A stretch of DNA of 63,823 bases, the filler included, from Psammoneis japonica (lineage: Eukaryota), in the NCBI GenBank assembly GCA_008632985.1. It is 3 parts of 3 records of this genome, joined end to end, with 100 filler letters (N's around TTAATTAATTAA, not from the genome) between each part and the next. Parts side by side here need not be neighbours in the genome. Positions count along the whole stretch, not along the records: positions 1 to 30,104 come from QPGO01000403.1; positions 30,205 to 60,168 come from QPGO01000400.1; positions 60,269 to 63,823 come from QPGO01000495.1. One strand, given 5' to 3'. The notes beneath the pieces were generated by a model. That model did no database searches. It saw nothing but the letters and a program-made list of their open reading frames with translations, and had not been told where the DNA came from. Made by a program: the position numbers and the translations under genes. Positions 1 to 63,823 of the stretch are shown here, one piece after another (the first letter of the stretch is position 1; each line of letters starts with the position of its first letter).

Positions 1-1260
1 CTGTCGCACTGAGCTGCCGCGGAGAGGAGCAAGCCACAGCATTGATCGCATGTGAGGCTCTTGCCACTCTGCGTACGATGCTGATCAGCTTGGTTCTTGA
101 CAGCACGGAGTTCCTCGACAGGGTGCACGGCATTCTCGAGCATGACGCGCTTCTGTCCTTCAGAGAAGTGGTCACTGGCCGGGATGAGTGCCTCGCACTT
201 GCGCAACTGATCTTGCCAATGAAGGATGAACCCGTGGGTCGGACCTTTCCAAGTGCCATCACCAAGACGTGCGGTGGAGGTGCGTGAGCAGGGTGGAGGA
301 CTCGACAGATGCGCGGTGGAGGCAAGCGCGCATTCAGACAAGGGCGGCAGACGGTCTGTGCATCAGAAGACCCCACATTTTCGCGAATGAGAGCCTTGCC
401 CTTGTCGGTGAGAAGGATGCGTTCGAAGACGGCGAACATGTACTTTTGCTGTTCAGCAAAGAGCAGTTTGTCTTCGGGGCTGGTCGGTTTGTACGACGAG
501 TCCTAGAATGCCTCGACGTCTTGGGCACGGGCTTGTGCCACAAGTGAGGTGTGCCAAGTGTGCCACTGCTTGTCGGATTTGAGAGCCGTGAAAGCGGTGG
601 GATCGCGCTTGATGCCTCACTTGAAGTCTCGCACCGGGTCACGTGCCGCAGCCTCTCCTCAGTTTTAGAGTCATCTTGAAGGAGCACACACACCTGGGTT
701 CAAATCATCAACGGTCCTCGCACCAGGTCGCGTGCCTTGGTCGGGTTGGTGACATGTGGAGGTGCAAGGGGTGAGCTGCCGATGGACAGAGAGGACATGC
801 AGTCCGGGCTGAGGCGGCAGGCAAGGAACTCATCATGCGTGAACAAAGAGGAGTCGTTGGCAACGTCAAGACCTTTGTGTGCTTTGACAATGTACAGGCT
901 GACTAGTGCTGCTAACATGTTCTTATAACCACGGGGCAAAGGGATTGCATTGGCGCCGTTGTCGTGCTCAAGTGAGTCGATTTGGGACGGCATGAACGTG
1001 AACAGTTCCTGATGCGAGTCCGTGCCGTCTTGGGCCAAAGCCAAACGAAGAGGACTCCCAGCACCTTGGGCAAGCACAGTTCCAACAACATGCTCGAAAC
1101 CATCGGTTTGTTGCTGACGAGTGAGAACCATGGCAGACAAAAGTGGTGTCAGGACAATCAATTCTGGTTGGGAAGCGAAGGTAGACTCGAAACTTGGGTG
1201 AGAATGGACTTGACTTGAAATGGACTTGACTTGAAATCTTGAACTATCTTAAAATCAGAA
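1..1260 (-). mobile_element. Ty1/Copia (CoDi-like) LTR retrotransposon, degenerate gag plus 5' leader; runs off the window start
   Basis: Minus strand starts MVLTRQQQ (ATG at ~1131). After frameshifts it reads ...FKRGIKRDP..., EKQKYMFAVFERILLTDKGKALIRE, GFILHWQDQLR, LENAVHPVEELRAVKNQAD and LTCDQCCGLLLSAAAQCD, resembling diatom CoDi Gag. LTR boundary not resolved (probably within 1260-2250). Confidence 0.8.
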
Positions 1261-2252
1261 GTCGCCGGGCTTTGTCATCCCGTTCGTTGTTGAGTGCTAA
1301 ACTTCCTGTCCGGTCCGTAGAGTTGTGCCGGCACGTCCGAACCCGCAGCCAGCGGCGCTTTGGGTTGCTTGCGAGCGGAGTAGCGGGTTGTAAACCCCTG
1401 CAGGTGAGCTGACTAGAGGTGGACAAGACCCCCGAACCGTTCTTGTTTTATGTCGGTTGGATTTCCCGATCAGGCTGGCCAGTTGACGCAGGCGTCAGGC
1501 GCTGTGGACGAACGAACAAACGCGGGAAAGTGCCCTCGCCCCAACGTGGGCTGTAATCACGGCTGCTTGCTCTCACAGTCGTCCTCGTGGACCTAGCAGA
1601 ACTGCAGAGCACCAGCAGTCCGGGGTAGATCAGGTACAATGGACTCGGTGTGCTTGTAGAGTGGCAGCAAAACCGCAGTCCGAAGAGTGGGTACAGGTTC
1701 TTGGCCGTGAAGATATGTATATATATGTGTGTCTTCAGAGACGAAGATCCTTGAATATGTAGGGTTCTTGACCGTTAACCGATGAACAGGTATGTCAAGG
1801 GATGAGGATCAAGGATAGACTTGGATATGACCGTTGAATGTATGTCTTCAGCGATCAAAGGTAGTACAATCAAACCAGATATCCAGCGGTAAGGAGACTT
1901 GACGGTGACGTTAACTTCCTGCCGATGCCCTGGCATTGGATGCGCGTAGACTTGCCGATGTATGTAGAATATATACGGAGGTCCACGTAGAATTGAAATA
2001 GCGTCGTTGGTAAATCAACGACGACGATGGCGGTTGCTCAATGGGTTGACAATGAGCAAGACTGTTAATCTGACAGAAATTGAAGGCAAATGGCAAGAAT
2101 TCAAACAATAACTCCTTACTGCTGTCTAAATAGCAGATGAGTCTCCGCTCAGAGACCGTTACAGGAGCCGAAAGACGTGTAAGTCGGTATAATCGGGCTA
2201 CTGTTATTATTCTTGTGAGCCTTGTGGCTCGAAAGCAAACTACATCGCGCGC

Positions 2253-2560
2253 NNNNNNNNNNNNNNNNNNNNNNNNNNNNNNNNNNNNNNNNNNNNNNNN
2301 NNNNNNNNNNNNNNNNNNNNNNNNNNNNNNNNNNNNNNNNNNNNNNNNNNNNNNNNNNNNNNNNNNNNNNNNNNNNNNNNNNNNNNNNNNNNNNNNNNNN
2401 NNNNNNNNNNNNNNNNNNNNNNNNNNNNNNNNNNNNNNNNNNNNNNNNNNNNNNNNNNNNNNNNNNNNNNNNNNNNNNNNNNNNNNNNNNNNNNNNNNNN
2501 NNNNNNNNNNNNNNNNNNNNNNNNNNNNNNNNNNNNNNNNNNNNNNNNNNNNNNNNNNNN
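2253..2560. other. Assembly gap (N run)
   Basis: Run of N. Confidence 1.
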
Positions 2561-5500
2561 GTGCCCCCCCCCCCGCCCCTTGGCTGCAACAAGAGAACAA
2601 GGCTGGTCCATCCCTGCACTGGCACTGAAGAGCACCAATTTGATCAACCACTGCCTGTGCGTGGTGATCAAATGTCAACCTGTTTTGTCAAGATGCCATC
2701 AATTCCACCCTGCCAAGTTGGTCAACACCCCCCCACCATGCAGAGTTCAAATTCCATCCATCAGTGCAGGCAAAAGTTGGTTCATTTGCACCTGAGATCA
2801 CCACCTCTCATTCACATGACTGCATCAACTGCATGACACCCTCTGCTTTCATTGCATGCAACTGATTCCCAACACAAAAATGTTGGTGTCCTTGTTGAAC
2901 ATGTGTGATTCTGAACAGCTCTTTTTCATGATTTTTCTCACACAGTGAGCAACCTCAAAAACCTCTCATTTCTGGACACACAACATTTTGGCAATGGACA
3001 AATCACCACAAAACAGGCTTCATTGCTTTGTTTTGATTGCCCCAGCCAAGGGCAGTGTGGTTCTCAAGGTGCTGGAATTGGGTGTCTTCAGAATGACAGC
3101 TCATTTTGTGCTGCTGGAAGGGGACCACACATGCTCCAAGCATGATGGCTGGATGCAATTCTTGCGACAACTCTTGCCATGGTGGCAGGACACCTCCCAT
3201 CACAGTGGAAGCAGTGCACACATGCTGTGCAAGGCACTTGATGCTAAAATTTGTGCTGCAGTCTCAAGCAACAAAATCAAGTTAAACCTTTTTGAGCTTC
3301 ACACAGAAGGCCAGCCAGTGCACAGCCAAAGCTGCAAAACCACTCAAAGTCCTTGGCAAGCAGCAGTGGCTGGGCATTTGTGCAACTGGAGGTGCAGCAG
3401 GATCTGCACAGAACCAAAGAAGTCATTCTTGCAGAGCACTGGTGGCTGGCAGGAAGCCCAGGTGCCTCCAACAACTCACAAGGCACCACAACTTCCAACA
3501 TGTCCCAAGGATGGCAATCATCATGGAGATCTTCTGGCAAAAGGATTCTGGGACTGGAGAGCAGACGCCATCACAGATGTGTTTGCACTCTGGATGCAGA
3601 GATGCAAAGTCACACCCATCCAAGATGCCACCAGCCAGAACAAGTTCTGGCAGACCGCAAATGACAGAAACAGTGCAAATGCCTCAAGCCCTGCCTTGAG
3701 CAACATCGCTGCTTCACTCCCTTTGTTGTGTCATGCGATGGGCTGCTCAACAATGAAGCCAAGGCAAGGCAGCGCTGCATGTGATCTCTTCCAAACCCAG
3801 CCGACAAATGGCAAAAGCCACGTTCAAAGGCATGTGGCTGCATCAATGCAAGAATGAGCACTGCTGTGGTGCAGGCGACTCACCTTTGCCTCAGGGGATC
3901 ATGCACCCCTTTGTCCCAGACCAGCTCCAGATGTGTCCCCAGTGGGAGGATGGCACTGGCCTGTCCCTGCACAAACACCAAATGACACCACTTGAGCCGG
4001 ATCACCACTGCCAAGACCAAACATCAACTGCCGACTTGCAGACCATTCCCACACATGGCCCAAAGACAGCCAAAACACCATCGCTGATGTGGCAATGGTG
4101 CCAGACCTCATTTGAATGTCTCTCACAGCACGCAGATGATGAAAAAGATGTGGCTGCGGTTGTGCTTTTGCCATGAAATGGGTGCAGCAGAAGATTCTTC
4201 ATGAAGACTGTGGTCAGTGCAATGCATGCAATCACAATGGGGGCAACAGTGTTGACAAAGAGACAGACATTGGCAAGAGCGTGTTTCAATTCAACAAAGT
4301 TGGATTTGTGTGTGGTGAGCAAGGACATTGTGAGCTGGGCTCTGGAGCACAAATTTGCACTGAAAGAAGAAAAGGATTCAAGTTGTTGCATGTCACAAAA
4401 GAGGGTTGGTTCAAGTTCAATGATGAGAAGCTCATTTTGAAAGGAGAGTTGTTTCATTGTTGTGTCAGTTGTGCAATCATGAGGGCACATTGGATTTCAA
4501 CAGGGGTGCACTGCTGTCATGCAAACAACGGATTGGCAGCTGAGTTGTGCAGTGCCAGATGCAACAAAAAGATAAATGCAGCAGAAACACAAAAAGGAAA
4601 TGTGCAATGGGGAGCTGAGTTGAAGCTCTTCCAAACAAATGAGAGTCAAATGTGAGCAAGATGCCAAGCAACAAAACAAACACTGCAAATCCTTGACACT
4701 GGAAAAATCAATTGTTGTCCTTAAATGGCAACTTTGGCAATGCCCAATTTGCAGCTGAAAATGAGCCAGTGTCAAAGCATTGTTCAGAATCACAGCTGCA
4801 GTGTGACAGCCTTGGCTGATTGCCTTGGCTGATTTTTGAAAAATTGTGACACTTCTTGTGGAGAGTGCAATCACAGTGTAAAAATTTTGATTCTTGTTGA
4901 CAGATCAAGAGGGAGAACATGTGTTTGTGGACAGACATGCCAGCTGGGCAAACTCACATGTTCGGCCCAACAAACTTTTTGGTTTGTTCTGATCTGACAT
5001 TTGGGCAAAAATCCCACTCATTCAGCAACACTCTTCTTGGATTCTTTCCCAAAAAATGTCTGAATTCTGACAGGCAATCAGACTTGAATCTCTGGAGTCC
5101 CAGAAATGCTGTCTTGCACTCATGGGGCCAACAAAATGTTGAGAATGGATGCAAATGCTGCAGCACAACCTTTTGGCACCCAGCAGGCATTGAGATGGGC
5201 AGCTGCATCTTGTCTAAAAGGTTTTGCTGCCCCCCAACATCTGAGCAGCTAAAACAAAAGTGCCCAGCCACCACAGACTGCTGGGGCACTTCAGCCGCAG
5301 TTTGTGGCAAACTCCTGACAAGGCACTCTTGTTGTTTTTGGAGCAGAAAAGAGTCATGGCATTCTCCTGCACATGCTGTGCTTGGCAGCAAGCAACATGA
5401 CAAAAGCCGTCAGAGCACTTCTTGTTGGAGCAGAAATTGATTTAAAAGAGCACAAAGCTGTGCTCAGAGCCTGAGCTGCAAAAATCAGCAGCAAGACTTC

Positions 5501-6200
5501 AAGGACAAGCTTCTGAGTGAGATCACCAAGCAGTCTCATGTGAGCAAAAGAGGGGGTGCCTGCACTGTTCTTGCCAGCAGGGGGCGAGTCAGGGGCAAAC
5601 CACTCACCTGGCTGATTTTGCTCAAGAATGGACACCTTGACAAGAGTGACCTGGCTCTAATGTGGGCACATGTGTGAGCAGGGCAACCATGTTCCCAACA
5701 ACATGTGCCGTTGCCAACTCAGAAACTGAGTCAAGAGAATGTTCCAACAGATTTGCCAGAAGCACTTGACATGGGCATGGGCGTGCCACTTTTGAACAAT
5801 GATGCCATGAACTGCAAAGAGTGCATGATGTTGTGTTTGCTCTTCCTCCAGAGCTTTGACACCTCTGCTGCTGAAACTGCCACCTCCACAGAGGGAGTGC
5901 ATTCACCTGGTCAACAAAGCTTTTTTGTGCACATCTTGAGAGACACATGCACATGACCAAGCTGCAGCTCCACAAGTCCCACATTGCAGTGGACAGTGGG
6001 GTTAAGACAGAGCAGTTGGGACAGAGAGAAAAGGAAGACATGAGACACACAGGCTCATCTCTGGACTGCACCAGAGGTGAAGGCTGCATGAGAGGTTGGG
6101 ATGTCAAGAAATTTGAGAATCCCACAGGCAACAAACAAAATCTTTCCCACTGCAGCACAAATTCACCCGCCATTGTCATCGATTGCGAAAGACATGGGAT
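2561..6200. repeat. Heavily mutated repeat-derived DNA, nearly devoid of TpA and CpG and rich in TpG/CpA
   Basis: TA and CG dinucleotides are almost absent over kilobases. ORFs are Cys/His-rich and end mostly in TGA. Only one sub-fragment could be classified. Confidence 0.75.
3480..3980 (+). mobile_element. 3' fragment of a CRE-like non-LTR retrotransposon (restriction-like endonuclease domain)
   Basis: GDLLAKGFW..DAITDV, then across frameshifts CLEQHRCFTPFVVSCDG, KWQKPRS..INARMSTAVVQATHLCLRGS and PQWEDGTGLSL. This matches the RLE C-terminus of CRE-type elements. Confidence 0.7.
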
Positions 6201-6396
6201 GTAAAACCAGGTTCATTGGCATTAAACATTTCGCATTGAATCACTCTCCATTCAGAATGTGACATGTGTTCCCCACTCTAGATTTCTTCTTTTTCGCGGC
6301 CATGTGAACCGGTGCATGATCGGTGCAAGAAATGCTGTTATCTCGTGGAGAAAACTTGCTCACTGTTGTTTTTCCCTTCATGGTCATCGATGTCCT

Positions 6397-6456
6397 TCTT
6401 TCTCTCTTCCCCTTCTTTCCTCTCTCCTCTCCTCTCCTCTCCTCTCTCCCCCCCCT
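6397..6456. repeat. CT-rich microsatellite ((CTCTC)n-like)
   Basis: tctctcctctcctctcctctcctctctccccccc seen directly. Confidence 0.85.
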
Positions 6457-6998
6457 GGTTTTCATGTATTTATTCATTTCGCCAATAACACAAGAAACTT
6501 GCGGGCAAGAGTGGCCTCTCGAACGCAATGCGGCAATCCATCTCTACAAGAATGAGATTTTATAACCGACAACAATAACTCTAATAAAACCACCTTATCG
6601 CCCTATTCTTCGAAAGCAACACATTCATGGTTTGACAGAGCTAGCACAATATGAAACTTGGTTGATAGCAAAGGGAGGTCTGAGTTCACCACGACAGCAC
6701 ACCATTGTGCGAAACCAGCACTGCGTTACATCACCAGCATACCAATCAACACAACACTTCATTCTCACCCACACACTGTGAGCGGTTGGTGCATGGCACC
6801 CCTAAAAGGAAATGAACACATATTTTACACATAACATCGATCTCTGTCAAGAAGGTAAACAGAAAACACATCATCAATGAGTGAACAGAACGAAAAGAAA
6901 GAAGCAAATACTCGTGGATACCCTTCATTTGATGAAATGCTTTCAAGACTTACCTTGCGAAGCGGCCACTCGGCATCCAGCTACATCCATACCGAGGC

Positions 6999-7277
6999 CT
7001 ATTCTTCGTTCTTGCTGTCTGCCGCGGCTTGCTCTTGCTTCTCTCCAGCCGGGTCTTCCGCCTTGTCGGCAGTATCTTCTTGCTTCTGCGCGAGGCAGCA
7101 GAACAACTTGTCGAAGAGTTCTTTGCCTTTGGATTTGGCATCCTTCGCACCCTCCTTTCCTTTCGCCTCGGCATCAGCAACGGTGTCCTTTCCTTTCTCC
7201 TTCGCATCCTTTGCGGCATCCTTGACGTCCTCGGCGGCCTTCTCGACCGGGTTCGTGGTTGGTTCTTCGGTGGCCAT
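6999..7277 (-). CDS. Small hydrophilic LEA-like protein (92 aa) with a central FCC motif
   Basis: ATG-to-TAG ORF with A/K/D/E-rich amphipathic repeats (KDAAKDAKEKGKD, GAKDAKSKGKE) and GC-rich third positions. Confidence 0.65.
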   Translation of the reverse strand: MATEEPTTNPVEKAAEDVKDAAKDAKEKGKDTVADAEAKGKEGAKDAKSKGKELFDKLFCCLAQKQEDTADKAEDPAGEKQEQAAADSKNEE

Positions 7278-7629
7278 CGTTTAGCTTGGCTTACTCAGGG
7301 AAATTGGAAAATATGTTCTGTTACAACAGGGACTGAAGTCTTGGGAAATGAGAACGTGACAGTGATACCTGATGATGGACGACTTGACACCCAATCAACT
7401 TCGTTTTGTTCTTCGAAAGCCTTTCTCGCGGGACTTCTTTGTGAGCGCGCGCGGGGCAATTAATGCTTTTCAAAGTCGACGAAATAGAGGAATCCGATAA
7501 ATAAAATAATCGAGAGCATATATACAAAAATGTTTTTATCATATTGGGATTGCTTTTACCAATAAAATTTTGCTAATTATGTCTTTGCATAAATTAATAG
7601 ACGTTCAGACATGTGAGTTTGGTTTTGGT

Positions 7630-7662
7630 CCCGCCCGCCCGCCCGCCCGCCCGCCCGCCGCC
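7630..7662. repeat. (CCCG)n tandem run upstream of the plastid-protein gene; G-quadruplex-capable on the minus strand
   Basis: cccgcccgcccgcccgcccgcccgcccgccgcc, ~130 bp before the ATG at 7793. Confidence 0.8.
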
Positions 7663-7792
7663 ACCAGTCCCTCTGACGCAGACACGCACACAACGATTTC
7701 AGCAAAATAACATCAACATCAAGATCCAATCCAACCACCAACTGCAGCCAACATCAACACCTGACACTCCAGACTCAGCCACCGAAGTGCAA

Positions 7793-8399
7793 ATGATACG
7801 TACGCCATTCAAAGTCAGCTTCCTGTCTCTTTGGCTGCTTGTAGCAGCACTCGTTGTTTCATGTTCGTCAGCCTTTGCTCCGGTACGCTCCTCGAACTCG
7901 AACCTCGCACGGCTGGTCAATACACCTTTCCTTTTTCGTCAAGCAACACGGAGCTTTCTTTCGAATGAGGATGAATCAGAAACACCTGAGGAACAAAAGC
8001 CACCTCCCATTATTGAGACAGAACCCGTTTCCACGGGAACTGAGTACCCGATCGATTTACCGTCACCAATTTTATTGGCGACTTCGATGATTTTGGCTAT
8101 TGCGTCGACAGGTGAGTAGCGGGACGAGTGCTTTTCTAATTCAAGAGATTGCAAAGATGATTTTATCTTTTGCTGATTTTTCTGTGATCTTCCCTCATTG
8201 TTTGGTTTCGTTTATTAACAAAATAGGCTCGGTTTTTGAACTTGCTGGAGGCAATCCTCAGTATGGCTTCGAAGTCACTGCATCCGTGGCTGCTATTGGA
8301 ATTCCACTCTGCCTCTTTCTATTTTACGCTGCAATTCTGAAAGGTACAGCAGAAACAGAGGAGGACGATAAGGCCTTTACGAAAAGCGGAAAGTTCTAG
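7793..8399 (+). CDS. Nucleus-encoded plastid-targeted small membrane protein with two TM helices; intron 8112-8226
   Basis: Signal peptide plus SSAFAP (ASAFAP motif) plus transit peptide. A GT..AG intron joins ...LAIAST|GSVFELAGG... in frame; TAG ends at 8399. Confidence 0.85.
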
Positions 8400-8918
8400 A
8401 CAATGCGGAATAGTGTATTTGAATTCGATTCTCGGCCATGTTGGATCCATTGCTGGAACCGCCGAATGCCGACTGAATGATATGACGGATGCCTACCGAT
8501 ACCTTTTGCCAATTGCTCTCGTCTGGTCATCATCATGTTAGCGCGGTCGTCGAAATGCTTAATTTTAGTTCAGCAACGTTGACTCCTCACTCTTCAATTA
8601 TTGGGAAAGTCTTGAGCTACCTCTCAACATACCGTAGTAGTAGCTGCAAAGGCCGTTAAATTTATACATTATGGTACGGCATGTTGAGTGTGATGCATTG
8701 CGCATCTTTGTATTTTAAATTTTGTTTTCCGGTATGCGCATTGTGTGTTGTTCCGATAAATCTGATCCGATGAATCTTGATGAATTTGTACATTTCGATT
8801 CTCTTTTCGCTTGCTGGTTCGAGGGTTTCGTTTCAATTTGTTTGTACATGAGGTGAAATTCCACCGTCTCTCCCCAGTCTATGTGTCTATTTACATTTTG
8901 TGAAGTTTGTCGCCATTA

Positions 8919-10523
8919 TCAGATGTCCCATTCGAATATCCATTTCGACACATCATTTGTGCTCTCTCCGCGCATCGCTTTGAGCGCCCGTTCTGCACTA
9001 CAACGTTGCTGCATCTCGAGCCGTCGGTCTAGGCGAAGTTTGCTGTACTCTTGTAAGGCTGTTGGGATATCTTGACTATCGCGAACAGAAACCGCTAGTG
9101 TAGCAGCATCTTCAAAAGCAAAGCTTGCAGCTGTTCAAAGAGAAAGAGCATTTGTAGTGAGCACAAACGATTTGACGAATACACCCAAGCTCTTTTTGTA
9201 TTGTGCCGGTATCCTACCATGTCCATAAGCGGCGTTTGTCACGGAGCAAGCATCTCCAACGAGTACCACTCTACCGTCGTCAGAAATGAGACGTAATCTG
9301 TCCATTGGAACTTCCTCGGATCGACGAACTACAATGGCATCCGCGTCAGAGTTTGCAACCAACTCCAGCACAAGTTCACGACCTGGTGAGTCCAATCTTC
9401 TTAGCAAAGACATTACATTTTCCTTGACTAGGTCTAAATTTTCGGGATTAGAGGAAAGAAATCGCTCTCCATCTTGATCAGCAATAGATATGGACCAGTA
9501 CGTGTATCGAGAGCCCGCAGGACCGGCGAAGTACGCTACTTGACCACACTTTGTAATGAAAGAATACGTTGTATTAGGCTCACAAGATTCTTCTTCACTC
9601 AGGTCAACTGGCGCCACTGCCTTGACGTTCACTCTTCCCATATCCACCATCTCAGCTCGAGCAATGTTCTTGGAAACTTCTACAGGAAGGCACACGTTGT
9701 TGTGGAGGCAATACCTAAAGATTGAATAAAGCCCGTCTGCTCCGACCAGTAGCGGCGCATACCTTGGAGTTCCTTGAAGATCACAAATCACCTGTCCCTC
9801 TATATCTACTGGAAAAACAACACTTGCTTCATCGAAATGTCGTGATCCATACCCAATAATTTCATCGCCGAAACCAGTGTTTAGGCAATCGGACGGAAGT
9901 TGATTAGCTAGCATTGATCGGAGAACACCCCATCGTATCAGTATCACGGGAAGATCCAAGCCATTGTCCATGGCATTTTGTGATACATTAGAAGAACCGC
10001 TCTGCGTTTGTACAGTGGTGATGTTTTTCTTGATCACAGAGCCGGCTTCAATGACGCGATTCATTAGACCATCGCCACCAATTTCTCGCAGCGCTCGAAG
10101 TCCGTTTGGCCCGACCTGTACCGCAGCCCCAGCATTTTCTAAACAGAATTCCTCTTTAGACAACGATTCAAACACGTGAACATTTGATGCTCCTGAGATC
10201 GATCTCAGAGCTAAAGCTGTAGCGAGACCGGCAAGCCCACCTCCAACGATAACTGTTCCGTCGGCTTGATGATGCGTGGTCTCGATGGTCTCTTGATGCC
10301 TACTCTTTACAGGTTGAGCGTTTCGGATTATTTGTCGGTCGGTCGACAGCAATCTGCGAGTAGACATGAAGAAAGTAAGCGACTGATTCACACTACGGCC
10401 GAAAGTTTTGCCGACGAGAGTGCTAAAGGATTTTCTATGAAGAGTGAGCGATTCTATGCGTCCTCCCAACGTAGCCATCTGAATTACTGCTGCACATGTC
10501 ATTTTGTGATGGCCATTCATCAT
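8919..10523 (-). CDS. FAD-dependent monooxygenase (group A, salicylate hydroxylase/zeaxanthin epoxidase-like); intron 9131-9217; start codon uncertain
   Basis: VIVGGGLAG, LLVGADG and VVLVGDA motifs. The spliced last exon reads YGH|AASFAFEDAATLA...WIFEWDI*. Confidence 0.85.
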
Positions 10524-11053
10524 GATAGACGAGTCACTTACCGGTATGCTGATGATTGGCTTGAAGTTGAAAAGGTGAGTACGTCAGATGGCGTAAGAGA
10601 ACAGAAAGCGAACACTGGATGCGATAAGTACAGAAATCGCCCTCTATTCGGAAAGGGTGTACAGACTGCAATGCTAAAACTAAAATAAATATATTCTTAA
10701 TATATTGAAATGAACGGATATTAAAGTATTAAAAGCATTTCATATACATATTCAGACCTGAGATAAAATGGATTCTCAACAGCCGTTGAACGTGCAACGG
10801 TCGGGTCGTCCCGCGAGAGCCATCCATCCACCATGTCGAGAGAAAAACGGCGACAATGAGAGAACATTCAACACACCGTGCACGACCGAAACCCACTACT
10901 ACTAGAGCATAAGCACCGTATTTACCATCAAAACGATTGATTCAATACTCGACAAGAAACAGAAAGCTCTTCACTGTGCTGAAAAGTTGCTTTCGCCTGT
11001 CCCTCACCTTTATTTCAAATAGGAAGTAATAAAAAGTCCGCAACTCCGTCAGC

Positions 11054-15010: not shown

Positions 15011-15164
15011 TTTAAAAAAGGAGTGGGAATGGAATCAAAAAGAATTACTGTGGTGAGATGCCTCATTGGAAGACCCATGCAAGGGATGAACAGAAATAAT
15101 CCTTTACAGTATGAGAAGAATACCAGTAGAAAGACTAAAAGCTGGAGGTAAACTAGACAATGGG

Positions 15165-46090: not shown

Positions 46091-46099
46091 GTCGATGAA

Positions 46100-52200: not shown

Positions 52201-54346
52201 GAAGCATGGAAAACTGTCAGTTGTCCACAAGACAGAAAGTGTCTCGGACAGCTCAGAAAGGAAGGAAGACACAGACGACGAGTTGTCGCAGTCACCCTAC
52301 TATCATGAGAAAGAAAATCCCAAGGGCTCATTTCTGAAAATAGGAACACAAATAAGGTTCAAAAGTGGCAGCTCTTTTTGGAAAGAACGCAAAGCCACAA
52401 TTGCCGGATTCCACAGAAACACGGTGGTGACCTCTGAAGGCGACTGGCTGCAATTCAAGAGTGAAAAGGAGGAAGATGAAACCATTGAAGAGTGGGAAAA
52501 AAATTGATGTGTATGATCCAGTAATTGCCTTGGAGCCACCGCCAGGTGACCAACCCATTTACATGTCATTGCGGCTGTGGCATGTGTGCATTGACAAGGA
52601 CTTGCAAGAGTGGTTGCGGGAGGCAAAGTCGAAGCGACCAACAATTTATGACCAGCTCATTGCCAAAATAATAAAGGAGTATGGCGAAGGCAGTGCCTGG
52701 GCCGTTGCCGGACCAACTGGTGTTGCAGCAAAACGTCAAACAATTGCCAAGATGAAGGACTTGGGAACCATGCCTGAACCCAAAACAGGACCTCCATGCA
52801 AGATATGGAAGCTGGATGGTGGCACACCAACCAGTGATTTGCTCCCAAACGACGATCATCAAAACCGCAGAAACAAGAGAGCACGCAGTGACAAACTCGC
52901 TAAAGATCGTCAAGAACGCGGTCACAAGAAAATGAAGGTGCGGTTTGAAAAAAGTCGCTCTCTTGTTCCCGGCTGTTTGGTCAGAATGAAGGTGGACAAA
53001 AGAGATCGCAACAAAGGCAACTACATCGGAATCATTGGCGTGGTGTATGAACAACATCCAGAGAGCATGTCGGTCAAGGTGGTGACAGAAGGTGGCATCA
53101 TATCCACTTACAACAAACCAAGAAACATTCAAGCAAGAGATTACAGCCCTTTGCAGAACCAGCATGTGCCGGTGGCCGAAGCACTTGACAAGTGGCGACA
53201 ACAAGTCAGGGACGGCACGTTCGATGAATCATCTTGTCCAAAGATAAGTTTGAAGAAGGCCCACAAGAATAGCACAGGAGACCAACCCAACAACATCGAT
53301 CAAAAATAGTTTTGTCTGTCATCACGTGTTGCTTTTCATTGCGAGGTAAACCCCCTCAACAACTTTTCAACTTTTTTCATCATTTTAACTTTAGCATGAC
53401 GTTGTCATAAGACTGAATGGAAAGTTTCTACATGAATAATTAAAAAATTTGGTCATTAAATCAATCGTCGAATGATTATACCCACCGCACTGCTAGAGAC
53501 AATTAGTGCAGTCATGGTTTGCACAGACAAAAGACTCTATAAATCGGTCATTCAATGACCGATTTGCCTAGAACCCTAAATAAACCATGTTTTTTATTTA
53601 AGTTCTTGGCAAATCGGTCACAGTCATTGGAGCAAAAATGAGGAAATAAACGTTAATTAGCCGTTATTCTGGTCATTTACATGAGACAAACAACAACGAC
53701 CTGAGGAAAAAATGGTGCTGCTGCATCCGTCGCGCCGCCACCATGAAAATGGGTCCATGCGTCACGACACCAAACAACAGGTGTTGTCCCTCCACCGGTG
53801 GATTCCCCCCTTCCTCCTTCGATGGCACATGTGCTGGTGAAGGCTGTTCTTCTGGTGGCATGTCAATCGCTCGAAGTGTGAATGGTCGGTTGGTGCCACG
53901 TCGACATGCGGTAATATAAAACAACAGGTCAATGGGCGGTGCGTACAATGTGTACACAGTCTTACCTGCATGTAGAAAATATACTGAAATGCTCTGTAGG
54001 AAATTTTCTACTTTTTTCATCATTTTAACTTTTGCATGACGTCATCGTAAGACTTTGCATGTGTTCCAAAATTTTGAATTGAAAATTTCGAATCAAATTA
54101 ACAAACAACGGTCATTTAATAAATCATTATATATTAGTTTGGTGACTGTATGTTGAACATTTTCGGATTCTTAAGAAAAAAAATATGATATTTTTAAGAA
54201 TACAAACGGCATTCTTAATAATCCGTGCCGTTGATTCTTGTTAAAAGAGCAGGACGAGCTAGAATTTATCACTCAACGGAAATCCGATTCTCGAGAATCG
54301 GAATTCGGATTCTTAAGAATGGGAATTCACGACTTTCGTCGTGACA
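49207..54346 (+). mobile_element. Ginger-type integrase DNA transposon (TGT...ACA ends, 4-bp TSD GTTC)
   Basis: TIRs TGTTACGACGA / TGTCACGACGA; GTTC at 49203-49206 and 54347-54350; palindromic GATTCTYRAGAATC subterminal repeats at both ends. Confidence 0.9.
49499..53309 (+). CDS. Integrase-type transposase (H2C2 + rve DDE) fused to Ulp1/C48 protease, RING finger and an SH3-like C-terminus; one frameshift at ~52500; probably 5'-truncated
   Basis: HHQTDGH...CPTC, FQMDLVD, HTDNGKEF, QGSVERSN, SHFAVL..QTDTHSCG and CGLC..HCC..HLHC..CPCC. ORF 52461-53309 (GCLVRMKVDKRDR..IIGVV) joins if one A is removed from a homopolymer. Confidence 0.85.
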
Positions 54347-57029
54347 GTTCTACGCGCGAGTGGCATTAGCTTCGACTTGTACGACTAAAATCTAAATAAA
54401 TAATCTGGAGCTCGACCGACCTCGAATATTTTTTAAATTCCTTGCTTTCATGCATGAAACGCTATTTTACGGAATCCCATTTAATGACACAGAGCTGCAA
54501 GTTTCAAGATGTTATTCCAACATCAAAACTGCTGTGGCATTTGGAGCACCTTCCATAGCCCTTCACTTTACTCGTTTGAGTGACCGTTCCTTAGACGTGC
54601 TCCAAATGGCAAGCTTATTTTGACTACAAAGTAGCAGCTTTAAATTGGTGTTCCGTTTTCTGTGTAGAGCGTACGCATTTTTCTCGTATATGACGTCACA
54701 TTGAGAACACTCGATCACAAAATATATTTTGTGAACTCAACTGGATTGACGATGATCGATGATCGTCTTATGCCTTTCCACTGGCTGTTTTTAAATGCTT
54801 CTGATGTAGATCAATCGCCCATGAGTTGCACTGTAGTCTTATGACTAAAGAATATTTTTATAAAGTTGCTTTTTATGCAGCTCTCAGCTCGCAAACGGAG
54901 AGCGTTCCGACATCTTTGCTGCTGACCTGCAGCACCATTGACCGTCATGCACTCTTCCTACTTTACTAAGAACAAGCCATTATGTTGTCAATGGGTCAAT
55001 CTAATTTTCTTTTTACATTATGACATATTCTACATTTGCTCTAAATGTGAGCTGTCTATAAGGTAGAAGACATCTAAATCCACGAGACAAACAAGTAGAG
55101 TCGGATGTTTTATGTCAACTTTCGGTGGAGACCACGTTGGTAGCGAGTGCAGCTTGCTTGTTCGAGTCGCCAACAGGGAAGATGGACAATCGGCGACACA
55201 TTACATTCCTTTGGTGTCAATTGCAAATGGATTCGAGTGTCGATACAACATGGCGGTCGACGGTCACGTGTTTGCTGATCTCCGATGCAAAGACAGGTTT
55301 CTCCAAAAGCTTCATGGCCTCAGGGAACCGTGCCCCGGACGATTGATGATACCCTGGTAAATCAAGTGAAAGAGTAGCAAAATGCTGTTCAGTTGGGCGT
55401 TTGTAATAAAAATGCGAGGTTAATACCAACAAACAACTCGCATCTGCTTTGGATTTTTACCTTGTGTTGATGTTATCGATTTTCTGGATTGTGGCTAGAG
55501 AATACGTAATTTCAAAGGAGCACATGAATTAAGAAGAGGGTGACGAGTAACATTCCATAGGTTTGACGACAATTGAAGTGCTTTCAGTGGCGCAATAGCT
55601 GCGAACCTCGACCGCCGCCATTGCCGAAGATTGGAGAAAATGGTTGATGTCGGCATGATTTTTGTGTACCAGACACACACGTACATTTCTACGCTGGTAC
55701 AAAAAATTATTTCTACGAAGCTAATGCCGCTTTGAACCACTGTGATGGGAGCTCGTACCAGTAGTACTGATGTGTGACACAATTATTTTTTATCATCCGT
55801 CGTATGTTTCGCACGTACATTTCTACGTTTGACATTGCAAAAAATTGTTCCAGACTTGCTGTTTTGTGAAACCACAGACGTTTTATTTAATGATGTTATA
55901 GGAACATTAATAGGCCAGGTGCATTCTTCAATGTCTGAAGAATGTACCAGGCTAAGTAGATAATGATGTACTTCGATTGACGAGCTTTGCATTCGCAAAA
56001 TTGCCTCATTTTCTGTTGGCGATCATTGATATATATTAATTACCTAATAATTTTAGTATGGAGCTCGCACGTAGATTTCTACGGGCCCAATGTCACACGG
56101 ATCCCCACCTACGTCTGGAACGCGTTGGCAGAAGATCATGACTCTACAGAATTTTGACCCGTTGGCTCATACTATGGCCACAATTCTGCGAGTGGATCGA
56201 GCAGGTCGAGTCTACCGAAGGTAACCAGGACCAACATACTAAGGTTCCACGTAAGCAGTGCCGTAGAACGGACAATCCTGAGTCGTTGATCATTAATCAG
56301 AAGAACACCCAGAAGTCGTGTATGCTCCACTAACTGTGGACATCATACTGACAATTGCCGTGCACTCAAGCACCACGTGAAACGTGTCAAGACTAACCAT
56401 GCCAATGGTGAAGACAGCAAAAGCCTAATCAAAAAGCCAAACCTGAAGAAGACATTTGTGCTATCATTGGCACGAAGGTAGACAAATACTTTGCCAACGC
56501 TCAGAAAAAGCGCAAGGCACGCGAGGAAGAGCTTAATCACTTCCGCGACCTCAACTTAAGCAATTCCCACAATTCGGACACCTGAGAAAGGGGCCGACAC
56601 AATGCTGGTGGTTTTAATGCATTAGATGAATGTACAAATGAACAACTAACATGCCATTGTACACGTGTTGTAGACCAATCCCGTAAACGAGTTAAAAAGG
56701 CTCACCTCACATCAATCTTGTTTGCAGCTATGAATGCCAAGCATGGCAAAGGCAAGACTCAGACTATTAAGGTGCCACCAGACAGTGGCGCCAGCAGTGC
56801 TCTACTAGATAAGTGACACTGCAAGCGTTTGCAAAGCCGTTCAACAGCTGAGACAAACTGGACAACGGTGGCAGGCTCGTTCAGTACAGTCAGCGATTGT
56901 ACCATTAAATTTAAGTTGCCAGAACTATCCGAGACTGCGGAACTTATACATGCCGTCCACGAACACAACGGAAAGTTGGGCAAGTACGATGTGATTATTG
57001 GATGAGACATTCTGGAGACACAATGAATG

Positions 57030-60000
57030 AGATAGGCACATGTACTCTACGACCGAGTGTGCCCTCTCTGACGTGTGCAACTCGCAGAATACTGTTGAAA
57101 AGAGAAAGAGCTTATTTACGTGCACGTGCAAAAATTTTATTAGAAATCAATCGGAACCTCAGCGTAATTATACTTGTGAAATTGGCGATTCGGAGCAGCA
57201 TTTGTTTGAACTCGAAGCTCGTGTTACTATGCTTGAACTTGTCATTGTTTGGTTATTGATTGTTCTCGTTGTGTGGATCAATTGGGAACGTATTGTTTCA
57301 TTTGTTGTGTGGATTATTGATTCTTTGATCACTGAAATTGTTCATCATCATGTATCAAGAAGCCTTGGAGAAAGTGTGCATTGAGTATAAAACCAAATTT
57401 TTGGATTCTGAATTGCAGGAAGTGAAGCTTACTCAAACTTTTGATGATGGAACTAAACTATCAAAGATGTATTATGACACCGGAACGGAACTCTTTGATG
57501 CCTTTGAGGATTGCTTACAAGGTACTGCAGAGGCAAAATGGCAGAATATCACGGCAGGCATCCCACAGAATCAAAGGATGGTAGCTCGGTTCAATCAAGC
57601 CATTACGGATTACCATCTATGCTATGTGAAGCCGACAGCTCGTGATACGATGAAGATGTGCTTGCCTACTTGCAAGAAACCTTACTCCGCGGAATCTGCA
57701 ATGCATGTTGATCGTATGGAAACTTTATTTCGCTATACTAACCGTTTGCCCGGAACCGTCCCTGAACTCAAAGAGCAGGAACAGAAAAATATTATCTTCT
57801 ACACCTTTCCTTTGACATGGCAGCAGTCCTATGTTTGTGCGGGCAAGAATCTTGTTACGGATTCAATGGTGGATATTCAAGCCTACATGAGTAACAAGAA
57901 GGTGTTTGCCGATGGTCAAGATAACAAGAAACGCAAGTCCAATAATGGCAATGGAGGGAATTCCAGTAACAAAAAGGGGGGCAACCGTGACAAGAAGGAT
58001 GGCAAGGGTCAACCCAAGGCTGGTGATCCATGTCCGGTCCCGTGGCATCATGGAAGACATACATGGGGCCAGTGTTGTGATATATCCAAAGAATCCTAAC
58101 TGTCGTGGACCTCAAAACCGCGGCAGTCGAGGTGGAGGTCGTGGCGGTGGAGGTCGAGGCGGAGGTCGCATCCAAGGAGGCCGTGGTCCTGGCCGTGGTG
58201 GAGGTGGATGCTTTGGTGGTCGTGGCAACCAAAACCAAGGAGGTCGCGGTACCCATTATAATAACAACAACAACAACAACAATGGGAATCAAAATAACAA
58301 TGGCAACCAAGGTGGTGGTGGCCAACATTATTACAACGATAACAATCGTGGTGGCCAAGGTCAGGCCGACAGCCATGCTGCTCAAGCAGATAATGTGAAT
58401 GACAACCAGGCTCGAGAAGCTCCTCGTGGTGAGATGCACCATTTCGATATGATCGGGCGAGGCCCTCCACATTCCGGAGGTGTGGTGAGGTTTCAGCCAG
58501 ATGGGCAGTTTCCTCAGCAGTTCTGAGAAGAAGGAGCTGAGTGCTCCAGAGCTGAATGCTCCCAATTGCCTACATGTGAAGTATTTGTTGAAGATGATTG
58601 TACCATGCCTGAAAATTTGCCTGAAAGTTTTGCCTTTGATTGTTTTGAAAATCCTAATGAATTATTGCCTGTTGAATTTGAAGATACTACAGAAAGTTAC
58701 ATGAATGAAGAGGGGGACGTATTCGATCAAGATGCATTTGAATATAACATTCCTCTCCCCAAAATGGGTTTGCAAGTTTCGCGTACCGCATTGGTCCCAT
58801 CAACTCTGTTAGTTGCCAAATCGATCCAGCCTCATGAGTCGAATCGTGTGATGTGTGTACTATTTGATTCTGGTGGCTCTCACACTATGATCTCTTCTCA
58901 AGTTTTACCTCGTGGAGCTGTACCATCCATTGATGAGCAAGGAGTATGAGCTTTTCAAACCATTGCAGGTCCTTTTCAGTCAGGTTGTTGGGTGGCTCTG
59001 AGTGACATTGTACTACCCGAATTCAACAAGACCAGAAGAGTTGACGGTTGTGTGGCTCATGTGTTTAATGCTCCATGTGCGTACGACATTATTTTGGGTC
59101 GAGATTTCCTAGACAAAATTGGACTCCATTTGAATTATGACACAAGAACTCTATGTTGGTTGGACCGTATCATTCTGATGAAGGATCCTCGTCATTGGTC
59201 CAAGTCCTGCAACTGGCATGTTGCACTAGACCGAATGGACGAATTCGATGAAGATTACGAGGACGAATCGAACTACGGATATGACGATGGACATGATAGC
59301 CACTGTTGGATGCTAAGTATGAAGCAACGGATCCTGCAGAAGTGGTTCGCAACCTAGATCACCTGATGGAAGAGCAAAAGAAAAAGCTGTTAGCGGTGTT
59401 GGAAAAATGCTCAACCTTGTTTGACGGAACTTTGGGTCACTGTCCTCATGAAAAGGTACACCTGGAGGTGGAAGAAAATGCCACACCCTGTCACTCAAAA
59501 CCTTTTCCTGTCGCTCGTGTTAATGAGGAAGCGTTTAAAAAGGAACTGAAGCATTTAGTGGACCCAGGAGTTCTACGACCATGTGGACCTACGGAATGGG
59601 CAGCTGGCACTTTCATTACTCCGAAGAAGGACGGCCGAGTGCGATGGGCATCTGATTTCCGTGAACTGAATAAGGCACTCAAGCAAAAAGTGTATCCTTT
59701 GCCGGTCATCCAAGATGCACTACAGCGGAGAGCAGGGTGCAAGTTCTTCACCAAACTTGATCTTACCATGTTCTACTGCAACTTGGAATTGGACGACGAA
59801 AGCAAGGAGCTAGCGATGATTGCAACCCCGTACGGAAAGCTCCAATGCTGTCGCATGGCCATGGGATTGAAACCAGCTCCAGATGTTGCTCAGTCTATCA
59901 TTGAAAAGATTTTACATGGTTTGGATGTCGAAACTTATATTGACGACATTGGCGCCTTTGATGCTGACTTTGATTGCCATCTCTCTCGTCTTGACAAGGT

Positions 60001-60168
60001 GTTACATCGTCTAGAGAATGGATTGAAAGTGAACCCATTAAAATGCGAGTGGTGTGTCCAAGAGACGGATTTCCTAGGATATTGGCTCACTCCAACTGGT
60101 GTCAAACCGTGGAAGAAAAAGGTCGAAGCGATTCTACGAATGCAACCTCCACGACATGCCACGCAACT
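57030..60168 (+). mobile_element. Second Ty3/Gypsy element (gag with RGG/Asn-rich tail, protease, RT), cut by the gap
   Basis: Gag 57338-58526, protease VLFDSGGSHT, YDIILGRDFL, and RT motifs EWAAGTFITPKKDGRVRWASDFRELNK, TYIDD and TDFLGY. Confidence 0.9.
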
Positions 60169-60268: not shown

Positions 60269-63200
60269 CACCTCCCCCCAAGTCACGAGTCAACAACCGA
60301 GTCTGATTCACGGATGACGCTTCCGGTCATGGATCTCTTCTTCCGGAAGAAATGTCCGTTGAGTCTTCTAGCGATAGTAATCGGAGTGACACACACGACC
60401 GTTAGGTCATAATGTCATCTCCAATCCCTCGTGAGATCTTCTCACAATTCGTGTCTTTAGCGTATCTTATTGTCCCAAAACTGCTTCTTGTCATCCTCTG
60501 TTGTATTGTAAAACCTCAAGAGAGTCCTGAACTCTCCATCCTACACAGTGCATTGTTGTGTCCCAAGTGGTTACGACCCCAATCCACGCACCGGCATCAA
60601 CTCGCAACGGAGTTGCTGCCACTCGTTCGTCTCGTTACAGACGACATCCCATCCAACGGCGATCTTCTATGTCGCAATCCAACGGCGATCATCTGTGTCG
60701 CAATCCCTGCCTGCCAATCGATCCTCTATGTCGAATCATCCACAACCATGTCCATGGATCCTGATGCCGTCAAGATGTTTGCTGAGGCCTTCGCCAAGAT
60801 GCAAACCTCGACCAACCCTCCTGCGATCCCCACGCCGCTTCGCGGCAGTGTCCACCACTCTCATGGAGTGCATCTGGGTGGTTCGGCTCTGAACAACAAG
60901 TGCGAGCAGACCGACACCCGCACCTGCCGTTTTGCCTCGCAACGTCGCCATCCGAAAGCTGTCGACTCTATCGAGCGATCTCTCTGAGATCAACTCGCTT
61001 CGGCAACCACATCCAAGTTCAACGGCCAGATTGAGTTGTCCAACGGTTCCAGTGCTGAACTGGACAAAGACCACTTCGTCAAGACCATTCAGGACTTAAT
61101 CGAGTCGCATGGACAAGAAACTTTCTACCATCTCAAGAAAGTCGACGGCAAGGTCGTGTGCCTTTTTGATCATCTTCACGCCTTCACTGTCAAAGACCTT
61201 GAGAAGGAATGTGAGACCCGTGTGGCGGCTGCAGGTGACGAAGGCTACGATCAGTGTGAAATCGATGACATCGGCTTGTCACAACTCATCGTCAAGTCGC
61301 GCATCACCGAAACCTTCCGTGAAAAGATTGAAACCAAGTTTAATCACTTGAAGAACTACAAGGATCTTCCGGGGTCTGTCTTGTTTATGATGGCTCTGGA
61401 CACCTGCAACGCCAGTGCTCTGGTTGACGTCAAGGCCGCCAAGGAAAAGTTGAACGACTTAACTCTGGACACCCACCCTGGCGAGGACTGCACCGAGCTT
61501 GCAACCGAAGCTCTGCGCCTGCTCAAGATCATGCAGACGGACCATGCGTTGCCAGTTGAAACTGGGTCTGCCACTTTGTCTAAGGTGTCAAAGACATCCT
61601 CCGAGTTTTTCAATCGTCAAGTTTTTGCCAAGCTCGACTCCGTCAAGCGCTTGGAGCGCAAATGTCGCTTGCGTGACCCGGCAGAAGTCCCCAAGGATGC
61701 CGACTGTGCGGATCTTGGACCTGTTGGCCTCATTGGCTGGATCACCAAGACCCATGGCGAACTCATCAGCGATGAAGATTGGCCTGCCTTAGCAGCCAAG
61801 CTCCCGGAATCCAACCTCGCCAAGGACAACTTGGAAAAGCATTGCTGCGGCTGTGGCAAGGTTGGGCACACCAAACGCACGTGTCCCACCTGCAAGGAGC
61901 AATGCAAGAAGGACAAAAAGGGCACGGCAGACAAGTCCAAGGATGACCCTCCGGATGTCCGGAAGACCAACCCTTACAAGAAACCACCCAAGCCGGCCTG
62001 GCGTTTCGTTCACAAAGGTGCCACTGTCACCGATGAGAAAGGCACGACCTGGCACTGGTGCGACAAGTGTGTGAACAAGGAAGCGGGCAAGAAGGGCATG
62101 CATCAAGGCCACTCCTCCGCTCAACACACCGGGAAACCGTCTGTCAAAACCGAAACCACCGCTGCGGCAAATTTGTCTGCTGTGTCGGACCCCTCTTCGG
62201 GCATTCCTTTTGGTCCTCCCGAGCAGACGACGAATCCGCCTGCAGACGAACCCTCTGACCCTAACGAGCTGGTTTATTGTGGCATGTGGTGTGCACCTGT
62301 GGACGACTCTTTGAGTTCGACTCCAGTGACTACGACCGTCACGTTCACTCCTGCTCCATCGGCCGAGAGGGAGACCACCGTGGCCAAACCCGCTCCCATC
62401 TTGGTTGAAACGGTTGACCCCAAAGACGCTGACGATTGCTCCGAGCACTCCGACGCTCACTCTTCTTTTGACTCCCTACCGTCAGCTGTCGAGCTATTTC
62501 CGGCCTATGCCATGCATGAGATTCAAAATCCGGACGTGTTTTATGACACGATCGCAACTCACGTGGAAGGTCTGTCCGACGACGTGTTGGACGATCTCGT
62601 TTCCGGGACAAGCATCCTACCTTTCGAAGACAGCTACGAGCACTTACCTCCAAGCACCCAGCATCGCGGTTTCGAATTTTACGATCCCGAACCCCAAGAT
62701 GTTGATTGTGGCGTCGAGGAGGCAACGCCGAGCTCTCATCTTGAGCTCTTCTGGAACTTCTTGAAGCTCCGAGTTTTCTGGCTGTTTGCTGTGTTCTGGG
62801 AAATGGCACTGCACATTTGCTGTGCGCCGATTCCTGTCTTACCTCGTCGCACACGCCGTAAGGCATTCATCCCAACCATTCACGGTTTCCCCTCTACCTG
62901 GATGGTGCTGACTGGAGCCATCATGGTCTGGGCGTCTGTTTTCAACGGTCAGCTTCCCACGTATCCATTCTCCAATGTCCCCTCTCGCTTCTCCAAAGCC
63001 AGCTCTCAGGTCTACTCGATCATTGAAGAACTAGACGATAAGACAGTGTTAGATCCGGGCAGTTTGGTGGAGTGCAACAAGATCAAGGCGCGACAAGCGC
63101 TTACCGAATTTGTGGAGCGCGATCCGGACCATCATCTGAGCAAGAAATTCACGCAGCTCTGGGAGAACGACGTATGCTCTTCCCCAGGCCGCTGCATCCC

Positions 63201-63823
63201 TCCAGCTCTAGAAGACCCCGAGTCCTACTTCGACACCTATGATTCAGAGGAAGCCCTCGGCCCGCTCCCGACCGAGCCGAGCCACTGCTTTGATGCGGTT
63301 GAGGAGCTCTCTCCGGACTATTTTCGTTTCGACGAGCTGTCCACCAAGTTTGGTTTCGTGGACACCACTCCATGGCAAGACCCTGTGAAGCTTCTCCAGG
63401 CAGCTACTGACAGAACCGAAGCCTGTCCTGCTCATACCTCTGTGCAGGTATTGACAGGCCAACGTTCTTTAGCACAACTCGCCGCCGACCCGCAAGCTTT
63501 GCTGAGCCTGGCACACGAGCGCCACACCGTCACATGCGACACTGGCGCATCCTTAGCCATTGCTTGCGATGAAAACGACTTTGTCGGGCCTCTGACGATC
63601 CCTGATGGCCCATTGAAGCTTGGGGGTCTAGCAAATGGCTTAACCATCGCCGGCATCGGACCCGTCTCCTGGGTTTTCCATGACGAGGACGGCTCTGAGC
63701 TCGTCGTCAAGACGATGGCGCACCATGCACCTCAGGCCGGACAATGCCTCTACAGCAAGGAACATGGCGTGACAGGAAAATGTGAGGGAGACGAGGACTC
63801 ATTTCGAGTGCATGTTGATGGCG
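60269..63823 (+). mobile_element. Ty1/Copia (CoDi-like) element: LTR/leader, then gag-pol from ATG ~60748 with one in-frame TGA (60985-60987); runs off the window end
   Basis: The same frame continues past the TGA: LPGSVLFMMALDTCNAS, zinc knuckle CCGCGKVGHTKRTCP (~61843), protease CDTGASLAI..DFVGPL (~63535) and GLTIAGIGPVSWVF. Confidence 0.85.

Follow-up and report, generated by a model that had tools for sequence, protein, structure and literature searches.

TpA loss by transition to TpG and CpA in transposon-derived DNA of Psammoneis japonica: a regional footprint like that of the alga Bigelowiella natans

The subject of this study is a window of 63,823 nucleotides (63.8 kb) that joins parts of three records of the Psammoneis japonica assembly GCA_008632985.1 and in which the dinucleotide TpA (TA) is nearly missing from long blocks of DNA, while genes close by have an ordinary composition. 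This depletion is a genuine footprint, strong and polarised. The changes are A:T to G:C transitions which convert TA into TG or CA; they are restricted to TA, concern both strands, are arranged in domains with sharp edges and prefer on each strand an adenine in the context 5'-T-A-pyrimidine. Probably, a regional process of the kind reported from Bigelowiella natans rewrites TpA to TpG or CpA in silenced, mostly transposon-derived chromosomal DNA and spares the genes. The original prediction, a reading of this DNA without database searches, had proposed a repeat-restricted hypermutation; the direction from TA to TG or CA, the restriction to TpA and the action on both strands were borne out by repeat copies, tyrosine columns, dinucleotide counts and sequence context. 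Comparisons within this genome were confined to the window, which contains N gaps, and to contigs of one public sequencing run, a single low-coverage sample that is possibly the assembly's own. Contig matches lie outside of both deep blocks described below and outside of the DNA beyond 60100, and word depth in this run is not copy number.

TA loss was expressed as the ratio of observed to expected counts. The ratio was 0.04 in 2561-6200 (10/239; deep block 1) and 0.02 in 25450-28300 (3/190; deep block 2), compared with 0.60 (751/1257) in a gene island that served as an internal control. Intergenic DNA of the gene island was TA-normal as well. Just four TA are located within 25450-28560, and the 1913 bp from 25448 to 27360 have none at all, where about 78 were expected at the gene-island rate (P ~1e-34). 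Thus TA is nearly absent from 2561-6200 and 25450-28560 and normal in the gene island, as had been claimed; 30-47 kb, much of which had been described as almost TA-free too, actually retains 368 of 1238 TA (0.30), about half of the gene baseline. Partial depletion was further seen in 49000-53300 (TA 0.20, CG 0.52) and 60400-63823 (TA 0.31, CG 0.90). The corresponding CG ratios were 0.13 in 2561-6200, 0.34 in 25450-28300 and 1.01 in the gene island.

The products of the change were found in matching amounts. TG and CA counts were near equal in the two deep blocks (390/456 and 334/329), each about 1.8- to 1.96-fold above expectation, and thus both strands were changed. The gain of TG+CA was in balance with the loss of TA+CG (357/322, 280/223, 1108/919, 224/238 and 68/78). 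Other dinucleotides (AA, AT, AG, GA) were unchanged: in the deep blocks versus the gene island AA was 1.16-1.28 vs 1.18, AT 0.86-0.89 vs 0.87 and AG 0.93-1.06 vs 1.04. Only GC was in excess with 1.31-1.45, which fits a conversion of TATA to TGCA; the latter tetranucleotide, the predicted product of TATA, occurred at 4.28 times its expectation. GC-biased gene conversion was rejected as a candidate, because AT, AA and TT were unaffected and CG was lost simultaneously.

Evidence on direction came from repeat copies. An ordinary self-BLAST yielded five repeat pairs, and recoding of the sequence into purines and pyrimidines exposed in addition two copies within deep block 2 and a tandem at 38.6-39.3 kb; short matches in the recoded sequence were disregarded as chance. 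Copies A (55.76 kb), B (27.12 kb) and C (26.30 kb) constitute one short repeat family. B and C are located inside deep block 2, and they alone link this block to a repeat family. At the 36 TA of copy A, copy B shows TG 17 times, CA 8 times and TA never. At 16 of the sites where A has TA, both B and C carry TG or CA; 10 of these are concordant and 6 discordant, with TG in one copy facing CA in the other. With any ancestor other than TA (or CG), two steps would be required for such a disagreement; therefore TA was the ancestral state. It also follows that the changes in B and C arose separately, either in place or, at the least, once the two copies had parted, and a concordance of 10/16 is compatible with independent events (expected 0.46, P = 0.14). 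At the CG sites of copy A, B and C were discordant in six of nine cases. A search of viral and metagenome contigs with the core pattern of the A/B repeat had no match. The tandem pair was left out of the direction analysis as too noisy. The 111-bp pair at 39990 and 40332, which had been cited as differing at TG/TA and CA/TA sites, does so at two of its five differences (one of each type); the other three are one CA/CG and two transversions. The family of the TA-normal repeat at 55800-56350 is the one from which the hypermutated copies at 26.3 and 27.1 kb derive.

The same direction was evident from proteins. In the Copia-type open reading frame (ORF), 15 columns with a consensus tyrosine among eight homologues contained five His, three Cys, two Tyr and five other residues, compared with Cys or His in 2 of 95 tyrosine cells of the homologues used as controls. 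The reverse-transcriptase ORF at 42761-43693 had His at three, Cys at one, Tyr at two and Phe at one of seven such columns (54 homologues; controls 8/283). When both elements were pooled, His or Cys replaced Tyr in 12 of 22 columns; among the control cells the count was 10 of 378 (P = 1e-11). All six peptide strings quoted in the original prediction are indeed encoded where it had placed them. Its interpretation of AHHAP as a former tyrosine motif was confirmed by CYYVP or CYLVP in all four homologues that cover the site; the interpretation of INCCRDMW and DCLGF was not, as a solved foamy-virus relative retrieved by a PDB search has F or FA instead of Y. Five metagenomic relatives of the Copia element had a TA ratio of 0.56-0.90 and a GC content of 41-44%, compared with 0.29 and 54% in the window. 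Its frame of 945 codons has neither stop nor frameshift, yet more than half of the conserved tyrosines were changed. The dead frame is still open because conversion of TA to TG or CA cannot create a stop codon.

Survival of TA depended on its neighbors. Relative to baseline it was 0.19 in RTAY (R, purine; Y, pyrimidine), 0.57 in YTAR and 0.43 in mixed contexts. In the deep blocks none of 386 RTAY-class sites and 9 of 353 YTAR-class sites retained TA; nine of the 13 TA left there are YTAR and nine are TAAA. In mixed contexts the product of TAY editing (YTGY+RCAR) exceeded the other product 1.59-fold in the deep blocks, up from 1.16 (P = 2e-4); in partly depleted DNA the ratio was 1.27, which was not significant. 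The pattern fits two independent strand events, each with a preference for A in 5'-TAY. Survival with G following TA was 0.37-0.55, at least as high as with C or T, and A following TA was protective. Pol-eta-like error-prone repair with its WA to WG bias (W, A or T), one of the two mechanisms suggested initially, was ruled out, because AA was not depleted (1.16-1.28 vs 1.18) and an A after TA protects.

TA loss and CpG decay often coincided. Of 45 TA-low windows of 500 bp 33 were also CG-low, and outside the gene island both losses were correlated with a Spearman coefficient of 0.64. Sharp edges are present at about 6200, 25447, 47612 and 49000, where TA and CG density shift together; at 25447 both fall within about 50 bp. 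On the other hand, four windows (1-1000 and 61-62.5 kb) were TA-low with normal CG, and the ratio of the losses was unequal, e.g. TA 0.31 and CG 0.90 in the Copia region versus 0.30 and 0.42 in 30-47 kb. We concluded from correlated losses at unequal ratios that the TA process and CpG decay have common targets but separate clocks. The signature of methyl-CpG decay was present in the blocks with CG at 0.13-0.52. It accounts for the CG part only, which makes up about half of the excess in TG/CA; TG or CA of the window faced CG in a contig at 15 of 40 differences listed.

That the depletion is an artefact of assembly or base calling has a negligible probability. Grounds for suspicion are the N gaps in the window, one of which, next to a poly-C run, is where deep block 1 begins. 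However, 2.9 kb of depleted DNA between 44 and 47 kb were matched exactly by contigs of the public run, with no difference over 44000-45188, 45165-46058 and 46160-46975 at a word depth of about 33, and the changes are coherent at the protein level in turning Tyr to His or Cys.

Confinement to selfish DNA was seen as depleted DNA adjoining normal DNA at sharp edges with a normal gene island, the origin of the deep blocks being unproven. Repeat-derived DNA is located on both flanks of the gene island (~6.9-25.2 kb). The claim of a repeat-restricted process has to be modified: the repeats of highest word depth are TA-normal, no transposon protein was recognisable in the deep blocks, and the integrase element is TA-poor although intact. 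In the public run word depth reached 9399 in 47.6-48.9 kb and 50292 in 55.8-56.35 kb compared with about 33 for unique DNA.

The integrase element at 49 to 53 kb is depleted in a manner of its own. A word-based search returned no homologues of its ORF, while an exhaustive search returned 2338 at E <= 0.001. They are 1000-1400 residues long with an N-terminal H2C2 domain and an rve integrase. When eight long ones were scanned, none had a reverse transcriptase and two had RING-type zinc-finger families. The window ORF is identical to the consensus in 150 of 188 columns. By codon position its TA ratio was 0.28 (20/71) at positions 1-2, where TA encodes Tyr, 0.16 at positions 2-3 and 0.03 (2/65) at positions 3-1; five host-gene ORFs had 0.57-0.66 at positions 3-1. 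A sister contig of 1639 bases with a word depth of 181 differed from the element at 26 sites. Among 19 of these differences listed, the window had TG or CA against CG of the contig in 10 and TA against TG or CA in 3. As sister copies are equally TA-poor and Tyr was kept, the family was TA-poor before its copies diverged and under selection at the protein level. There are three readings of its TA poverty: the lineage is alive and has long been exposed to the same mutator, it has escaped by avoiding TA, or it simply inherited this state. Two further observations concern this element. At 50926-50927 the window has CA and the sister contig TG, a two-step discordance like that of copies B and C. 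Furthermore, the window copy runs on in another frame past 52504, and homologues align to 52866-53279 (region 49316-53306).

Several results weigh against a process that erodes transposon-derived DNA in place. Copies A, B and C are old with 84% identity even in the purine/pyrimidine code, and the tandem pair at 38.6-39.3 kb has 36 other transitions and 29 transversions next to 7 TA-type differences. The stretches of highest word depth (47.6-48.9 and 53.5-60.1 kb) are normal in TA and CG. Among 91 ORFs of 1-6400 and 25300-30200, Pfam searches up to E = 0.5 gave matches at chance level only, so that no transposon protein is recognisable in the deep blocks. A runs test for clustering of TG versus CA by strand gave no signal (z -1.0 to +1.9). 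In the integrase ORF, nine consensus tyrosines are represented by seven Y and two F without any Cys or His, and it is TA-poor all the same; its sister copies in the public run, where the element is apparently multi-copy, are equally TA-poor, and this poverty may be due to selection or ancestry. Intact copies as poor in TA as the damaged ones had been named in advance as evidence against the idea, and the integrase family partly fits this description. An A to G change at TAY is a T to C change at RTA on the opposite strand, and the two are indistinguishable from sequence. Finally, the present case is known from its footprint alone.

The integrase data could be accommodated by a TA poverty that was inherited or selected in element lineages, by TA avoidance or a TA-poor donor, instead of damage after insertion. 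Codon-position-dependent loss, retention of Tyr (7 Y, 2 F of 9) and equally poor sister copies are in line with this explanation. Yet the same integrase pattern is also expected from the mutator combined with purifying selection. Inheritance or selection provides no explanation for non-coding blocks at 0.02-0.04, for the TG/CA discordance of B and C and for the replacement of Tyr by His or Cys in Copia and reverse transcriptase; moreover, the metagenomic Copia relatives are TA-normal. We consider it improbable as the cause of the footprint. The equivalence of TAY and RTA editing lends itself to a modification of thymine, in which a TET/JBP-type enzyme oxidizes T in 5'-R-T-A to 5-hydroxymethyl- or 5-formyluracil with T to C changes as a consequence. 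Formyluracil mispairs with G. There was no positive evidence for this route in the window, and the authors of the B. natans study favor adenine deamination with an ADAT2-like enzyme as a candidate (bioRxiv 10.64898/2026.01.13.699255). Thus we assign a low probability to thymine oxidation.

A-to-I editing of transposon RNA by an ADAR- or ADAT-like enzyme, fixed by reverse transcription, would agree with retroelements (Copia, reverse transcriptase) being among the targets and with U being the usual base before an adenosine edited by RNA adenosine deaminases, as stated in the preprint (bioRxiv 10.64898/2026.01.13.699255). But TG equals CA within the same blocks, the TA-poor integrase element belongs to a family without reverse transcriptase in all eight long homologues scanned, and the neighboring copies B and C were changed independently; strand symmetry, a non-retro target and independent neighboring copies make editing before reverse transcription most unlikely. 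In addition, block edges match those of CpG decay and not those of single elements, and G after the edited A was not favored. The original prediction was right in placing the action at the DNA level, in excluding a single round of RNA editing and in calling the polarity opposite to that of fungal repeat-induced point mutation (RIP). Untargeted TpA damage or ordinary mutation bias might likewise accumulate without repair or selection in old heterochromatin. The correlation of TA and CG loss (Spearman 0.64 outside the gene island) and the old appearance of the deepest blocks are compatible with it. It is nevertheless very unlikely: the ratio of TA to CG loss is inconstant between Copia and 30-47 kb, a Copia frame of 945 codons is open with more than half of its conserved tyrosines gone, the gene island has a normal composition between its genes too, and in B. 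natans the rate is about 1000 times background and only certain lines are affected (bioRxiv 10.64898/2026.01.13.699255).

For the process that we favor, a regional rewriting of TpA in silenced DNA, we propose that adenine would be deaminated enzymatically to inosine, which is copied as G. The natural substrate of TadA reads U-A-C. Targeting would be by a silent-chromatin state that also carries CpG methylation, as suggested by the common edges of TA loss and CpG decay. Activity would occur in bursts instead of clock-like and could far outpace CpG decay, since TA loss and CG loss stand in very different proportions from one element to the next. Elements would be crippled by missense changes of Tyr to Cys or His and leave long empty ORFs; the damage is missense and not nonsense because TA to TG or CA never yields a stop codon. 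In the deep blocks TAA+TAG dropped from 20.1 to 1.7 per kb and stop-free runs of at least 100 codons increased from 2.0 to 3.2-3.3 per kb, and because of the loss of TAA and TAG, ORFs overlap on both strands. A wider proposal, which we regard as possible but short of probable, is a chromatin-guided DNA editor of A in 5'-TAY (or T in RTA) common to distant algae of the SAR group (stramenopiles, alveolates and Rhizaria), i.e. a diatom-like stramenopile and a chlorarachniophyte. It would act as an episodic, missense-only genome defence, and surviving transposons would escape by purging dispensable TA, as the intact integrase element appears to have done.

The case belongs to a type of TpA hypermutation that is known from one other alga and differs by deeper erosion and by transposon DNA as its target. 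In B. natans, integrated giant-virus and virophage DNA is subject to TpA hypermutation (Mettrop et al., bioRxiv 10.64898/2026.01.13.699255). Among 231 new mutations found there in two integrated viral regions, 230 were A to G or T to C, every one of these on TpA; the rate was about 1000 times background, and the mutations were confined to certain lines. Both cases share changes that are almost exclusively A:T to G:C, only at TpA, to TpG or CpA on either strand, and regional beside normal DNA, a long-term deficit of TpA with high CpA+TpG and an apparently intermittent activity. Reverse transcriptase and DDE endonuclease domains are reported there to be overrepresented in the TpA-poor genes of B. 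natans. New mutations were measured in culture lines there, in contrast to a footprint here; the targets are viral there and transposon relics here, with no viral genes in Pfam scans; depletion here reaches 0.02-0.04 versus a Rho of 0.45 for the B. natans virus region; and here CpG decay and a preference of TAY over TAR are added, the latter not encountered in the available preprint text. The window contributes three further details, namely a TAY rule tested by its products, a TA loss decoupled from that of CpG and an intact element purged of TA. A full-text literature search returned no description of the TpA signature in diatoms, the B. natans preprint being the sole description of it. The statement of the original prediction that no description was known therefore applies to diatoms, not to the phenomenon, as the same TpA-only hypermutation has been measured in B. 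natans (bioRxiv 10.64898/2026.01.13.699255).

RIP of Neurospora and other fungi is similar in its dinucleotide-specific transitions which disable selfish DNA and in sharply bounded domains of odd composition. It converts CpA to TpA, enriches TA, lowers GC and creates stops, whereas the window loses TA and no stops can arise. The hallmark of RIP, C to T at CpA with an excess of TpA, was absent, TA being depleted and CA/TG enriched with opposite polarity. Since the repeats of highest word depth, which is not equal to copy number, were spared, duplication alone may not be the trigger here. Methyl-CpG decay acts in the same blocks and also yields TG and CA, but it cannot remove TA, and TA was lost without loss of CG in 1-1000 and 61-62.5 kb. 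Diatoms methylate transposons and have RID-related DNMT4 enzymes described as of unknown function (PMC9998398). Animal ADAR and APOBEC enzymes cause clustered transitions of the deaminase type in selfish elements. They act strand-coherently on RNA or single-stranded retroelement cDNA, in contrast to resident DNA on both strands here, including a non-retro element. None of the ADAR-like hallmarks, i.e. restriction to retro-copied DNA, one strand per event and G after A, was found.

If an enzyme-driven TpA editor also operates in diatom-like algae, A:T to G:C hypermutation would be a widespread defence against selfish DNA in marine eukaryotes, and a natural DNA adenine (or thymine) editor would be worth finding. 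Both the enzyme and its timing are constrained by the TAY rule and by the fact that TA loss is decoupled from CpG decay. On the practical side, long false ORFs on both strands of TA-free DNA can mislead gene prediction, and changes of Tyr to Cys or His conceal transposon proteins from family searches. On both strands of 2561-6200 and 25450-28300, ORFs of 100-300 codons without a family match overlap in large numbers and are likely to be mis-called as genes.

Table 1. Location and composition of features in the window (TA, CG, TG and CA as observed/expected)
Feature	Position	Strand	Remarks
TA-poor, CpG-normal stretch	1-950		TA 10/45 = 0.22, CG 0.83
N gap, 308 N	2253-2560		adjoins deep block 1
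Deep block 1	2561-6200		TA 10/239 = 0.04, CG 27/213 = 0.13, TG 1.96, CA 1.78
Gene island, internal control	6900-25200		TA 751/1257 = 0.60, CG 1.01
Deep block 2	25448-28340		TA-free run 25448-27360; sharp left edge
Repeat copy C, hypermutated	26300-26700	+	purine/pyrimidine recoding
Repeat copy B, hypermutated	27120-27500	+	purine/pyrimidine recoding
Partly depleted transposon relics	30300-47500		TA 368/1238 = 0.30, CG 0.42
Direct repeat pair, 111 bp	39990-40100 and 40332-40442	+	5 differences
Dead reverse-transcriptase ORF	42761-43693	-	7 consensus-Tyr columns
Endonuclease/exonuclease/phosphatase domain, relic like a long interspersed nuclear element (LINE)	44796-45506	-	Pfam; DNA identical in public-run contigs
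Retroviral-type reverse-transcriptase fragment with DCLGF and INCCRDMW	46948-47698	+	reverse-transcriptase domain match 46948-47379
TA-normal insert	47612-49000		TA 0.89, CG 0.94; high word depth; sharp edges
Integrase (H2C2 + rve) element ORF, 1063 codons open	49316-52504	+	TA 0.20; no reverse transcriptase
Repeat DNA, high word depth, not TA-depleted	53500-60100		TA 0.62, CG 0.86
Repeat copy A, TA- and CG-normal	55760-56140	+	word depth 50292 in public run
Copia-type gag-protease ORF, 945 codons open	60988-63822	+	TA 0.29, CG 0.87; AHHAP 63718-63732

The features are listed in Table 1. The insert between the retroviral-type fragment and the integrase ORF is located in older depleted DNA and matched no Pfam family. 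A long poly-C run directly follows the 308-N gap (2253-2580) at the apparent start of deep block 1. Pfam identified FAD-binding, UCH (ubiquitin hydrolase), RFC1, TMEM128 and amine oxidase genes in the gene island. An imperfect palindrome of 111 bp at 28447-28555, which is 79% self-complementary, is located where deep block 2 ends on the right. A Protein Atlas query with the UCH gene pointed to Eukaryota and to no narrower lineage; the sole hint at a diatom is one homologue of the reverse-transcriptase ORF that carries the name of Fragilaria crotonensis.

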